A stretch of DNA of 63,949 nucleotides, the filler included, from Candidatus Woesearchaeota archaeon (GTDB taxonomy: Archaea > Nanobdellota > Nanobdellia > Woesearchaeales > WJIZ01): the NCBI GenBank assembly GCA_018221205.1. It is 8 parts of 8 records of this genome, joined end to end, with 100 filler letters (N's around TTAATTAATTAA, not from the genome) between each part and the next. Parts side by side here need not be neighbours in the genome. Positions count along the whole stretch, not along the records: positions 1 to 3,954 come from JAAOYF010000056.1; 7 more parts are not named here. One strand, 5' to 3'. Position numbers and translations under genes: made by a program. This document shows, piece by piece, positions 1 to 13,222 of this stretch. Under the pieces are notes generated by a model. It searched no databases. It saw only the letters and a program-made list of their open reading frames with translations, and was not told the origin of the DNA. Each line of letters starts with the position of its first letter. The first letter of the stretch is position 1.

Positions 1-188
1 TATGCTTTTGTCCGTGCTTCTCCAGCAACATGGACCGAACCTGTTGTTGTCAAACACTCTGCTGCACACCGTGATTCTGGATCCTGCTTGAGCATCTCAT
101 CAAGGATCGCGTCTGACACTTGATCGGCTATTTTATCGGGGTGGCCTTCCGTCACGCTCTCCGATGTAAAGTAACTTATTTTAGTCAT
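1..188 (-). CDS. metK: S-adenosylmethionine synthetase, bacterial/eukaryotic type; N-terminal part only, runs off the window
   Basis: Manual translation [50 protein letters not shown] contains the FTSESV-x-EGHPDK signature. A GGAGGT SD lies upstream, and the ATG overlaps the endonuclease stop (ATGA). Not in the ORF track. Confidence 0.95.
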
Positions 189-1042
189 TTTGTTTTACCT
201 CCTATATGAATATCATAAATTTTCTGCTTCCTCTCTAGGAAAATTGTAGCACCATCATATACATATTGCGCTAATTTTTTTCCTCGAGAGCAGGAATATT
301 GGAGAACATATACATTCTTACCAACTTTTCTAATATTTGCATTTATTCCAATTTTGTGAAGTATGACTTTTCTGAAATCTTCGCAAAAGTCTATTGAACC
401 AGATGCGATAGTTATTTCAAAGTAGGGGCTCCTTTTTCTCTGAACGTATCTAACATTGCCATCACCATCGATCACACCCCTAATGAAATGCCTTAATTGA
501 TTGTTTGGTATGTTTGGGAACCTTGCAGTGAGTGTTTTTCTAGGCAGTATTCCTAAGTTCATTAATCTTTTGCATAAATATTTACTATTCACAATTAAGC
601 GATATGAGTTCGTTTTAGGTGAATAAATTAAAGGTTTTGAACTTGATAGGATACCCCTAATTTTCTCCAGATGTGATCTATCCTTTGAAGCCGCAGTTAA
701 TGTCATGGCCCAATAACTTTTATTTTCATTCCATGAAATATTGCCATCTGCCATAATCAGACCTAGGATATATGTTGAATGCTCATTAAATGAATCAAAG
801 AACCGTTCATTTGCAGTATGGTTTTTATGTATTAGTCCTTCTTCGCGAGACCACCTATTTACTGTAGTTTTGCCTATCTTTAATCTCCGAGCAATCTCTC
901 TTTGAGAAATCCTCTCGAAATTGCTTCTAATATATGGTAAAAGTTCTTTCTTTTTCATCAAAGGAATTTTATTTGCCATAGATATACACTTCTGGGCAAG
1001 TGGAATTCTAAAAGAAAGTACTATCTCATTGTTAAAAAGCAT
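185..1042 (-). CDS. Free-standing LAGLIDADG homing endonuclease with N-terminal HTH (true start may be 979 or 958)
   Basis: Two motifs, [10 protein letters not shown] and [32 protein letters not shown]; visibly AT-rich; no intein splicing blocks. Confidence 0.9.
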
Positions 1043-1094
1043 TTGTACCTCTTATTCGAAAGATTTCTGATGTAAAGTATGTTATTTTTGCCAT
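1032..1094 (-). pseudogene. Vestigial original 5' end of metK (20-codon [23 protein letters not shown])
   Basis: GGAGGG SD followed by ATG. The first 10 codons match the metK start (8/10 aa, 24/30 nt), then the sequence diverges. Confidence 0.8.
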
Positions 1095-1208
1095 AGTAAA
1101 CCCTCCATCTGACACTCCTAAAAATAGAGCTTTAAATAGCTTTTTGTTCCTAATATTCTGATACGAATATTGCAAATTATTATATAGTTGAACACCTTGG
1201 ATGAGGAT

Positions 1209-1622
1209 ATGATAGCAAAAAAGGAATGGTTCAAGCCCCGCATACTCGGATGGGGCCTTTATCCTAAGATGTGGGAGGGATGGGCCTATATTTTCATAGC
1301 TGTCTTTCTGTTCATCGGTGCACTGAATCTCCCTGTGCAGGATGAGACCAAAACTCTCATTGCAGGCATCATCCTGGCTGTCTTTATCTTTGATACTTTG
1401 ATCGTGATGGTACAAGTCTATCGGAATCTTACTCCGGAGGAGAAGAAAAAGCAATATATCATGGAAGCTACTGCCAGCTATGTCGGTGTGACTGCTTTGG
1501 TGATTGCCTTGCTCTACAGGATTCTGGTGGAGAAGCAAATTGATTATCTTTTGATTGCAGTCCTTGTTGCAATGGCATTAGCTAAAGGCGCGACTGCTTA
1601 TTCCAAAAGTAATAAAAACTAG
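1209..1622 (+). CDS. Small integral membrane protein, about 4 TM
   Basis: WFKPRILGWGLYPKMWEGW motif followed by hydrophobic helices. Confidence 0.7.
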   Translation: MIAKKEWFKPRILGWGLYPKMWEGWAYIFIAVFLFIGALNLPVQDETKTLIAGIILAVFIFDTLIVMVQVYRNLTPEEKKKQYIMEATASYVGVTALVIALLYRILVEKQIDYLLIAVLVAMALAKGATAYSKSNKN

Positions 1623-1640
1623 GACAGATTATTCTTAGAC

Positions 1641-2189
1641 ATGGTCTTTACTATCAAGCAGATAAAGGATATCAGGAAGAAAGTAGGTATGACACAGTTC
1701 CAGCTTGCGAAGCATGCCCAGGTGAGCCAGAGCCTTATCGCAAAGGTAGAATCCGGTAAATTGGATCCGACGTATTCTAATGCCATGAAGATCATCGATG
1801 CATTGAATGATGTGAGCGAAAAGAAGGAGCATAAGGCAGATGAACTGATGAGCAAAAGCGTCATTTCCGTCTCCCCTACTGCACCTGTCAAAGATGCTAT
1901 CACCAAGATGAGGAAGCATGGTTTTTCCCAGCTGCCGGTCATTACGCAGCATAAGGCTGTAGGGATGATCACTGAGTCAACAATCCTTGATTCATTTCTT
2001 GGGCATAAAGGGAACGGAGTGGAGGACATCATGGAAAGTCCTCCTCCGGTTGTCAGCCATGACACCCCTATGGGCATGTTGACTCAACTTATCCGTTACA
2101 TACCTATGGTGCTGGTGTCGAGAAAAGGCAGACTTGTGGGTGTCATCACCAAAGCAGACATCCTCTCTAAGATGTATACCTCACCGTAA
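1641..2189 (+). CDS. XRE-HTH plus CBS-pair transcriptional regulator
   Basis: HTH TQFQLAKHAQVSQSLIAKVESG and two CBS domains (FSQLPV, LVGVITKADIL). Confidence 0.9.
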   Translation: MVFTIKQIKDIRKKVGMTQFQLAKHAQVSQSLIAKVESGKLDPTYSNAMKIIDALNDVSEKKEHKADELMSKSVISVSPTAPVKDAITKMRKHGFSQLPVITQHKAVGMITESTILDSFLGHKGNGVEDIMESPPPVVSHDTPMGMLTQLIRYIPMVLVSRKGRLVGVITKADILSKMYTSP

Positions 2190-2891
2190 ATTCTTTATCT
2201 TTCCGAAATCATACACTTTATCGCCGACGATAAATGCTTTGAACTGATCAATATCCTCCACAAAAGGGCTTAGATGATTCTCTTGCAGGACATCAGAGCC
2301 TTCCTGCACTGGTGTAAAAGCAGGCAAGACAATGAGATTATATCTTTTCCACTTTCCTTTGAGAAAGCACTTGAACTTCTCTGTTCTCGGGCCATCCTCT
2401 AATCTGATAGCAGGGTGCTCATGGCCGATGATGATTGTTTTGATCTTCTTTTGCTTGAGGAAGCGCTCTTCTACCAGATTATGGCCATGGACGATGAGGA
2501 TGTCTTTGAGGATCTCATGATCTTTTACTATAATATTCCTCTTTTTTGCTATCGGCCCTAGAATAGTATCATGATTTCCTCTTATCAGGATAAGTTTTTC
2601 ACATCTTTTTGCAAGAAAGTCTATCAATCTTAATGTATGACGCCATTCAGTCTCGGATATGGTGCCGAATTCATGCTTCAGGTCACCATTGATGATTATT
2701 CTTTTTAATTTGGGCAATGATGTGAACATTCCTTCCAAAGTCTTTGTCAGATCCTTGAACTGGAATCTCGGAACCAATACTCCTTTTTTGTTCAATGCCT
2801 CTTCATAGCCGACATGGATATCTGAGATGATCAGAGAGTCTTGAGTAAGCAGACCAAGTCCGAAGATTTCAATTCCTTTTTGAATTTCCAT
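2181..2891 (-). CDS. Calcineurin-like metallophosphoesterase (archaeal ICC-like)
   Basis: SDIHVG, NGDLKH, GNHD, HGH and GHEHP motifs. Confidence 0.9.
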   Translation of the reverse strand: MEIQKGIEIFGLGLLTQDSLIISDIHVGYEEALNKKGVLVPRFQFKDLTKTLEGMFTSLPKLKRIIINGDLKHEFGTISETEWRHTLRLIDFLAKRCEKLILIRGNHDTILGPIAKKRNIIVKDHEILKDILIVHGHNLVEERFLKQKKIKTIIIGHEHPAIRLEDGPRTEKFKCFLKGKWKRYNLIVLPAFTPVQEGSDVLQENHLSPFVEDIDQFKAFIVGDKVYDFGKIKNLR

Positions 2892-2934
2892 AATTCTTGG
2901 ATAATGGTCGTGTATAAAAATCTGCTGGCAAAAG

Positions 2935-3103
2935 GAAAACATTTAAATACTACATAATGAGTTTTATCTAATCCGATTTCCGTCGGAGAGGAATGGTTTT
3001 TATCGTAAAGAATGACTCAAACAGTGCGGACAAACACACCAACTTGTAGGTTGGATTCATTTGCGTATTCTCAAATATTTTTCAAACTCATGGAGGAGGA
3101 TGA
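2935..3103 (+). promoter_or_regulatory. BRE/TATA promoter followed by a ~130-nt structured leader with upstream ORFs
   Basis: GGAAAAC-A-TTTAAATA (TATA at 2942-2949); hairpins at 2972-2987 and 3039-3054; uORFs at 2993-3049 and 3012-3107. Confidence 0.5.
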
Positions 3104-3562
3104 ATGACCAGAACAATAATAAAAAAGAGCTACGATAAGCTCAAAGCAATTAAAGATAAGATTATGTGGACAAAGACAGAAGTAGGAAAACAAGTTGATC
3201 TTTCTAAGGTAAAGACAGACGGAAAGCATATTCGTGTGGAAGTATATAATGTACCGAGGGAGCTCACTTTTGATTACCATCTCTTTTACCGATTCCTTTC
3301 AGAACTGCCGGCTAAAGTGGGTATGGGTACGTTGACGCCGCCTATCATTGTTTCAGGCATCCCTACGAATCCAGGACTTACTGGTATTCTTGTTATCGAT
3401 TACTCTCATATCAGTTTTCATGCATTTGCGGAAAAGAACAGGATAAACTTTGATCTCTATTCCTGCAAAGATTTTGACCCTAACATTGTTATACAACACG
3501 CTGAACAGCATTTCAAGCTCAGCCGCGATAATATGATCATCAAGGAAGACTTCAGATTTTAG
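3104..3562 (+). CDS. Pyruvoyl-dependent decarboxylase of the AdoMetDC (SpeD) family
   Basis: GLTGILVIDYSHISFH and FDLYSCKDFD match the SpeD (E)SHxxxH and DxxSC motifs. Confidence 0.8.
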   Translation: MTRTIIKKSYDKLKAIKDKIMWTKTEVGKQVDLSKVKTDGKHIRVEVYNVPRELTFDYHLFYRFLSELPAKVGMGTLTPPIIVSGIPTNPGLTGILVIDYSHISFHAFAEKNRINFDLYSCKDFDPNIVIQHAEQHFKLSRDNMIIKEDFRF

Positions 3563-3571
3563 GTGTTTTTT

Positions 3572-3954
3572 ATGCATTATGGGGGGCCAGATATAGAACA
3601 TTGTACTTTTGACAAGGCTAAGATAGTGATTGTTCCAGTCCCTTATGACGGGACGAGTTCTTACGGTAAAGGGTCTGATAAAGGTCCGGAAGCGTTGATC
3701 CATGCATCTTCGCAGATGGAATTGTATGATATCGAGACTGATTCTGAAGCTTATTTAGAAGGTATTCATACTGATAAAGATGTTACTGAGAAATCTACTC
3801 CTGAGAAGATGGTGGAAGCGGTCAAGAAACGCGTTTCTGGACATCTTCAGCATGGTAAGTATGCCATTGTTCTCGGTGGAGAGCATTCAGTGAGCAACGG
3901 CACGATCCAGGCGCATGCTGAGAAGTTTGATGATCTTTCTGTGTTGCAGATCGA
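3572..3954 (+). CDS. speB: Agmatinase, truncated by the gap
   Basis: VPYDGTSSYGKGSDKGP and LGGEHS ureohydrolase motifs. Confidence 0.9.
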
Positions 3955-4054
3955 NNNNNNNNNNNNNNNNNNNNNNNNNNNNNNNNNNNNNNNNNNNNTT
4001 AATTAATTAANNNNNNNNNNNNNNNNNNNNNNNNNNNNNNNNNNNNNNNNNNNN
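3955..4054. other. Artificial contig spacer (others at 9007-9106, 13041-13140, 26051-26150, 39438-39537, 48603-48702, 54638-54737)
   Basis: Identical 100-nt N runs with a central TTAATTAATTAA, which gives stops in all six frames. Confidence 0.98.
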
Positions 4055-8926: not shown

Positions 8927-9006
8927 TTAATGCGAGCGTAGCGAGCACAGGGGTTTAATTCCCCGACCTTTAGGTCGACTTCTTAGAAATATTTTTACGC
9001 GGCTAC
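8927..9006 (+). repeat. Hairpin-rich repeat or non-autonomous mobile element, copy 1 (cut by the contig end)
   Basis: Matches the reverse complement of 13143-13222 with a single mismatch; begins at TTAA. Confidence 0.85.
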
Positions 9007-13140: not shown

Positions 13141-13222
13141 GCGTAGCCGCGTAAAAGTATTTCTAAGAAGTCGACCTAAAGGTCGGGGAATTAAACCCCT
13201 GTGCTCGCTACGCTCGCATTAA
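13141..13222 (-). repeat. Hairpin-rich repeat or non-autonomous mobile element, copy 2 (cut by the contig end)
   Basis: Reverse complement of 8927-9006; ends at TTAA inside the aldolase reading frame. Confidence 0.85.

Follow-up and report, generated by a model that had tools for sequence, protein, structure and literature searches.

A putative free-standing homing element that carries a replacement metK start in Woesearchaeota and related archaea

In a Candidatus Woesearchaeota archaeon (assembly GCA_018221205.1), metK is preceded by a gene for a protein with a helix-turn-helix (HTH) region and two LAGLIDADG motifs, and this gene is itself preceded by a second, stranded copy of the first metK codons. 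We consider it probable that this arrangement represents a free-standing homing element, which would cut unoccupied metK near the codons for EGHPDKxCD and be copied in together with a replacement start that is predicted to resist cutting. The comparison of occupied, empty and remnant-bearing loci on which this reading is based is described below, together with the alternatives.

Organization of the metK locus

Positions refer to the window, i.e. the whole stretch of 63,949 nt that was analysed, which has seven N-spacer gaps; metK lies on contig C40 (window 1-3954). The features are listed in Table 1. On the minus strand, the native promoter is followed by the old start, the endonuclease gene, the new Shine-Dalgarno sequence (SD) with its ATG, and metK. 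The reading frame of the old start, hereafter the stub, ends at 1032, overlapping the endonuclease start, and the DNA after 1065 is unrelated. At the other end, the endonuclease TGA (187-185) overlaps the metK ATG at 188. The earlier note had described two metK starts flanking an HTH and double-LAGLIDADG gene, and this description is confirmed: stub and downstream start are identical at 24/30 nt, a value that was reached in 0/2000 shuffles of the 1196-nt region. Its further proposal, a free-standing and unspliced cassette that brings its own replacement 5′ end, is supported by the endonuclease having its own ORF and stop, by the second SD and ATG, and by the lack of an intron signal.

Table 1 Features of the metK element in the window, and loci of related elements
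Feature	Position or loci	Strand	Basis or remark
Palindromic operator-like motif TATTC-N6-GAATA, native metK promoter	1154..1169	.	75 nt before stub ATG; putative function
TATA-like box TTTAAA	1131..1136	-	Sequence; putative function
Original SD GGAGG	1102..1106	-	Sequence
Stranded original metK start, 10 codons (MAKITYFTSE)	1065..1094	-	ATG at 1094
SD-like GAGGT ahead of endonuclease ATG (1042)	1047..1051	-	Sequence
HTH and double-motif LAGLIDADG endonuclease gene, 285 aa	185..1042	-	PF14528 twice, HTH families
LAGLIDADG motif 1	769-743	-	Catalytic-position Asp present
LAGLIDADG motif 2	484-458	-	Catalytic-position Asp present
New SD GGAGGT within last endonuclease codons	197..202	-	Sequence; GGAGG at 202-198
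Replacement metK 5′ end, 21 codons	126..188	-	Probably reaches at least Ala codon 128-126, beyond 159
Predicted target region, codons EGHPDKIAD	123..149	-	Altered, predicted resistant form; Ala vs Cys in empty alleles
Host metK body, cut off by contig end	1..125	-	Nearest to same-family empty alleles L025, L005
Divergent HTH-CBS regulator gene	1641..2189	+	Syntenic with metK in empty and occupied loci
BHB-type inserts in metK of relatives	L032, L033, L055-L057, L059, L062, L065, L071, L148, L149, L157, L163		Candidate mRNA introns
Extra base in metK of relatives	L054, L063, L064, L072, L146, L154, L156, L161, L162, L164, L165, L167		Candidate +1 frameshift
EGHPxYLCD look-alike	L054, L059, L061, L063-L065, L072, L157, L162, L166, L173		Possible self-repression site
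pth2 loci	L039:1092-2458, L041:1003-2461, L043:1123-2467		Distant homologue between stub and full gene
topA loci	L074:2659-5852, L078:2737-5746, L086:2686-5950		Distant homologue upstream of topA

The downstream copy ([19 protein letters not shown]...) matches PF00438 (E 1.9e-26), and the MetK it begins is of the bacterial/eukaryotic type. It ends with the contig after 62 codons, and a search of the remaining assembly (94.8% complete) gave no MetK C-terminal domain. The GC content of the insert is 29-38%, compared with 42% for the genome. As to the read support on which the earlier note made its proposal depend, contigs of run X1 cross both junctions (54-315 and 975-1251) with zero differing letters; each junction is covered by a separate piece and none spans the whole element, and X1 may be the source sample, so that it is not independent. 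The metK-like pieces in run X2 are all short and unrelated. End overlaps of about 80 nt (e.g. window 8927-9006 and 13143-13222) recur in many contigs and point to collapsed repeats. The metK contig also holds an S-adenosylmethionine decarboxylase gene (PF02675; window 3104-4006) and an ORF in the same interval (window 3104-4006) that we take to be agmatinase-like, the two making up a SAM-polyamine cluster.

The palindrome TATTC-N6-GAATA, a pattern chosen by eye, has three exact copies in the genome, the other two at G000:C13:3242 and G000:C72:8563. With at most one mismatch, it lies 58-98 nt before metK in 15 of the 27 loci of relatives without a whole endonuclease gene, and it precedes the endonuclease in 29/52 occupied loci. 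Its place ahead of the stub and endonuclease in occupied loci implies that the native promoter remains with the stub. Throughout the order, metK promoters bear this motif, in most cases next to an HTH-CBS gene in divergent orientation, and the gene and the palindrome are likely to form a regulator-operator pair. The best matches of the stub are empty alleles of the same family (L018 with 26/30 and L005 with 25/30), and that of the downstream copy is the remnant-bearing L016 (25/30), margins of only 2-3 nt in 30 that hint weakly at a native stub and a foreign downstream copy. The metK body past the altered site (39 aa) is closest to the empty alleles L025 (85%) and L005 (79%).

The 285-aa ORF, which has a conserved alternative Met at 979, matches PF14528 (LAGLIDADG_3) twice (E 6.5e-16) and HTH families at residues ~30-89. 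Both LAGLIDADG motifs are present, with acidic residues at the catalytic positions, and D71 and D166 (P0001 numbering), at the catalytic position of each motif, are invariant in 50/50 aligned homologues. The sole PDB match of the endonuclease profile is the homing endonuclease 2dch (E 3.4e-10). The AlphaFold model (pLDDT 93.5) has a three-helix N-terminus, then the order alpha-beta-beta-alpha-beta-beta-alpha twice; on this model and the 2dch match, the predicted fold is that of two LAGLIDADG-type domains, and sequence and model together place the protein in the LAGLIDADG family. In 8 of 13 pairs, those without saturation, dN/dS is 0.08-0.18. We predict that the endonuclease is active.

Distribution of the element and its fate in relatives

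Homologues of the endonuclease that pass E 0.001 number 279, and the 120 listed ones are 55-68% identical to it; the records of close homologues are labelled Woesearchaeota, Nanoarchaeia, Aenigmatarchaeota, Micrarchaeota or unclassified archaea, which makes a DPANN archaeon the probable host. A single-protein search of genome contigs gave no confirmed relative, while an alignment-based scan did find relatives. Viral contigs gave three distant matches (28-34% identity) and no close relative. Among 82 loci with an endonuclease match of at least 45% identity, metK is immediately downstream in 72, and the other 10 end within 85 nt of the match; dropping exact duplicates and the 10 loci without metK left 55 distinct occupied loci. 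Presence is patchy. A match of at least 55% identity occurs in 8 of 401 sampled genomes of the order, with 16 passing E 1e-10, and none of the six same-family genomes passes E 1e-10 for the endonuclease, all six having metK.

Empty alleles of the kind predicted by the earlier note exist in the same family: in L005, L018, L020 and L025 the metK start runs straight into SVTEGHPDK. In L005 the HTH-CBS neighbour is kept and the start continues directly into [13 protein letters not shown]. In two further loci, L016 (same family) and L024, the endonuclease is reduced to a remnant of its final 25-42 codons, followed by an altered metK. Stubs undergo erosion, and some loci have lost the endonuclease gene and retain the altered allele.

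The duplicated metK starts that the earlier note expected beside homologues of the endonuclease were found as well. Significant stubs occur in 12/53 loci, and their ends range from -2 to +32 nt relative to the first base of the Ser codon, +32 lying within Asp-Lys; homologous proteins fused to ...SVTEGHP also show variable stub ends. Counting nine loci recognized by a target look-alike in addition to these 12, a trace of the old start is found in 21/53 loci, and 32 are without one. Stubs either extend no further than the GATAA of Asp-Lys or, in 11/58 loci, retain the EGHP and xD flanks around a changed centre. An origin of the window stub by one clean 24-nt deletion between repeats was dropped, as the spacing does not fit exactly. 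The look-alike EGHPxYLCD stands 54-69 nt before the endonuclease in 11 loci, in frame in 10 and out of frame in one, and is absent from the window; it is possibly a binding site through which the endonuclease represses itself.

The endonuclease and MetK trees conflict. Endonuclease presence requires 10 changes on the 68-row MetK tree, of which at least 7 are forced by well-supported branches; the MetK trees leave out 13 of 81 rows under 250 aa, the window's own among them. For the 40 loci having both proteins, the state with one extra base in metK (see below) changes three times on the endonuclease tree and five times on the MetK-body tree. In AU tests on these 40 loci, run under LG+G4, a model that rejects true clades more often (5/71), the MetK data reject a single clade of the extra-base loci (10 members; p-AU 9e-11), which the endonuclease data allow (p-AU 0.39). 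Clade A had been named after the endonuclease tree was seen, and we therefore rely on the AU test defined by label. The extra-base state thus tracks the endonuclease and not the MetK body, as predicted by co-transfer of the enzyme and the 5′ end into different hosts. Patchiness, tree conflict and remnants together reflect horizontal spread and loss at one locus.

These observations bear on a different reading, in which the protein is a domesticated HTH-LAGLIDADG regulator, the first gene of a metK operon, which binds DNA and no longer spreads, the duplications being relics of one old insertion. WhiA provides the comparison for such a regulator. The invariant catalytic Asp residues, the patchy presence with remnants, the conflict between the trees and a metK site altered in 53/55 loci all argue against domestication, even if the fixed position under the metK promoter, the purifying selection, the N-terminal HTH and a conserved upstream look-alike that could be a binding site (11/58 loci) would suit a regulator. 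We think domestication unlikely.

Target region and altered alleles

In 53/55 distinct occupied loci, the working copy of the metK start has an alteration in the region of EGHPDKxCD, 10-35 bp beyond the FTSE/SV junction. Among endonuclease-free relatives, 20/25 are unaltered there and 5/25 are altered, Cys being kept in 23/25; these 25 alleles exclude L012 (a motif variant that has Cys), L016, L024 and L027. Fisher tests of alteration against endonuclease presence ignore kinship. Once kinship is removed, seven independent pairs remain, of which on average 6.1 follow the association and none runs against it (sign test median p 0.03, range 0.016-0.063).

Three types of alteration are found in the 53 loci: an amino-acid change in 28, a small BHB-type insert in 13, and one extra base in 12. 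The uninterrupted copies have an amino-acid change in 28/30 (20 Cys to Ala, 4 Cys to Ser and 4 others), and the remaining occupied alleles L153 and L160 have an unaltered amino-acid sequence. The change in the window is Cys to Ala at 128-126, which is non-synonymous. Ala at this MetK position is a common natural variant (PDB 5t8s), so that Cys to Ala alone is weak as evidence of resistance. Cys is kept in 12/13 insert alleles, as expected if either change alone suffices. From the clustering of the alterations we infer a target centred near window 137-132, at the Asp-Lys codons.

The inserts of 21-38 nt all fit a BHB best at one register inside the Lys codon (13/13). The central helix is 4/4 in 12/13, with letters that co-vary, and excision would restore the frame, which makes these inserts candidate archaeal mRNA introns. 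In the 12 extra-base loci, the additional base follows the Pro codon and brings a TGA into the reading frame (CCT or CCC, then TGA C; 12/12), the rest of MetK being intact, and the Gly codon is GGG in 9/12. This context, which we take to resemble the prfB signal, suggests a candidate +1 programmed frameshift. A search of the 401 order genomes for the exact pattern gave three matches, all in unrelated genes and none in metK, and the form is thus absent from endonuclease-free metK among the genomes searched.

The earlier note had placed the invaded site at FTSE/SV, with resistance provided by the synonymous changes in the Ser and Glu codons. In the window, the Glu codon is indeed the exact end of the similarity, the Ser and Glu codons each differ between the copies, and the HTH domain could widen the footprint upstream. 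Nevertheless, across relatives the stub ends are scattered over the -2 to +32 range given above, and the inserts, extra bases and amino-acid changes all lie further on, clustering at EGHPDKxCD (149-123). The stub's own codons, TCA GAA, are carried by 12/55 replacement copies, including 4/5 of the nearest endonuclease relatives, and the Ser/Glu codons do not separate the occupied from the endonuclease-free group. FTSE/SV is where the window's stub happens to end, and neither the proposed site nor the proposed mode of protection is supported; we give a homing cassette with this target very little weight.

The 906-nt insert could also be read as an endonuclease-bearing intron (BHB or group I) that joins the upstream start to SVTEGHPDK, the second start being incidental. 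Splicing of this kind would preserve the frame, a tRNA splicing endonuclease is encoded in the genome, and small BHB-type inserts do occur in relatives' metK, but a BHB test of the whole cassette was negative, with none of the 63 registers that keep the MetK motif having a 4/4 central helix. Rfam gave five matches at E up to 10, none to an intron family and none to the group I covariance model. Since, in addition, the downstream copy comes with a separate SD and ATG in those relatives that were inspected and the stubs are mostly eroded or undetectable, we consider an intron very improbable. An assembly artefact or chance similarity, for which one could cite the fragmented assembly and the contig end inside metK, is largely refuted by the shuffles, by the X1 contigs across both junctions and by the recurrence of the layout in dozens of other records.

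Under the homing reading, the enzyme would make its cut close to the Asp-Lys codons of an empty allele (corresponding to ~137-132 in the window). The downstream side would be repaired by homology with donor metK past the altered site. The upstream side would join at the donor stub or, between species, at a point that varies once the end has been resected, and the old start would be left stranded. Endonuclease and metK would then be co-transcribed from the old promoter, with translation of metK starting anew at the second SD by way of the overlapping stop and start codons, making splicing of the cassette unnecessary. The carried copy is altered at the target (Cys to Ala in the window, BHB-type insert or extra base in relatives), which would confer resistance; the association is observed and the protection is presumed. 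Later, as seen in relatives, the stub erodes and the endonuclease is occasionally deleted, an altered allele being left. Against the homing reading stand the 32/53 loci without a detectable old start, the unaltered L153 and L160, and the five altered alleles among the 25 free of endonuclease.

Comparison with known systems and other genes

Among known systems, fungal mitochondrial mORFs, which form gene hybrids with atp6 in Allomyces macrogynus and with atp6, atp9, cox2 and nad3 in Glomus, share several features with the metK element (PMC3630166): in both, the endonuclease is free-standing and lies within an essential gene but outside any intron, a replacement end is carried along, and the native end persists as a duplicate. 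In the same account, mORFs involve the 3′ end of genes in a eukaryotic organelle, whereas the metK element lies on an archaeal chromosome, replaces a 5′ end, SD and start codon included, and, unlike mORFs, leaves the native promoter ahead of the endonuclease. The metK element may thus be viewed as working like a fungal mORF in mirror image. Of the defining features of mORFs, it has the location outside an intron or intein and the duplicated host gene end (a weak test of origin for the window copy), and it lacks the 3′-end mitochondrial setting. The 5′ form is not wholly without precedent, as fungal GIY-YIG genes duplicated with the atp9 N-terminus are mentioned in the accessible text of PMC7487136.

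The T4 seg/mob genes, as far as the accessible text of PMC2988022 describes them, are likewise free-standing and often promoterless, use a host promoter, have signals for the downstream gene inside their coding region and co-convert their flanks. They are GIY-YIG or HNH enzymes in intergenic positions that cut hundreds to thousands of bp away, whereas the metK enzyme is a LAGLIDADG protein with a predicted site ~50 bp from its stop, within the duplicated gene start. The metK element has none of the T4-type characters of GIY-YIG or HNH family, intergenic position and distant cut. It is outside both the mORF and the T4 groups as these are defined.

Archaeal intron-encoded double-motif LAGLIDADG enzymes, I-DmoI being one, sit in rRNA introns. 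The 2dch enzyme, which we take to be I-Tsp061I, has the same two-motif monomeric fold and catalytic positions as predicted here; the metK endonuclease differs from enzymes of this type by its N-terminal HTH and by having no intron. For the 21-38 nt inserts in 13 relatives, the cbf5 pre-mRNA intron of Crenarchaeota is an archaeal mRNA intron precedent and a model, judging from the accessible text of PMC2738675, although the inserts differ from it in being tied to the predicted site of an adjacent endonuclease, and the window has no such insert. Free-standing homing endonucleases are described as generally restricted to intergenic targets in a 2026 paper (PMC13619312), whose accessible text does not mention metK, and the coverage of CPR in the accessible text of PMC11270868 consists of rRNA insertions only. 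A literature search, thin in subscription journals, found no description of the metK element.

A similar layout is also seen at other genes. A screen of 66 distant loci found the order of stub, enzyme and gene at pth2 and topA, the latter in CPR bacteria, most Bacillaceae loci being without it. At pth2 (PF01981), a distant homologue (~30% identity) lies between a stub of 12-18 codons and the full gene in 3/3 loci. Upstream of topA, distant homologues are found in CPR bacteria (Staskawiczbacteria and Doudnabacteria records), with a topA stub of 9-10 codons in 2/3. We lean, by a narrow balance, towards a wider reading in which the chromosomes of DPANN archaea and CPR bacteria hold widespread, unpublished, splicing-free homing cassettes that enter essential genes (metK, pth2, topA) at their first codons and supply these genes with a new start. 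At metK, according to this reading, an arms race over one 25-bp site would have produced three escape routes that travel with the nuclease: recoding of amino acids, the emergence of BHB introns in the mRNA, and the insertion of a single base, which would force a +1 ribosomal frameshift for active MetK.

With neither an intron nor an intein, the metK element apparently gains access to a conserved catalytic motif in an essential gene of the chromosome. It offers a mapped predicted target together with natural candidate sensitive and resistant alleles, as a possible natural counterpart of recoded gene drives, and would make it possible to test directly if archaeal mRNA introns and programmed frameshifts arise under pressure from a nuclease. 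The element would also account for the broken- or truncated-looking annotations of some DPANN metK genes.

Many of the distant homologues in Bacillaceae records (L079-L128) lie ahead of a single conserved ORF (~125 aa), a pairing of another kind in which no duplicated start was detected. In L046, an exact 23-nt repeat that resembles a tRNA 5′ end flanks the distant homologue, and in L096 the homologue lies between two genes that are presumably rpoB-like and rpoC-like.
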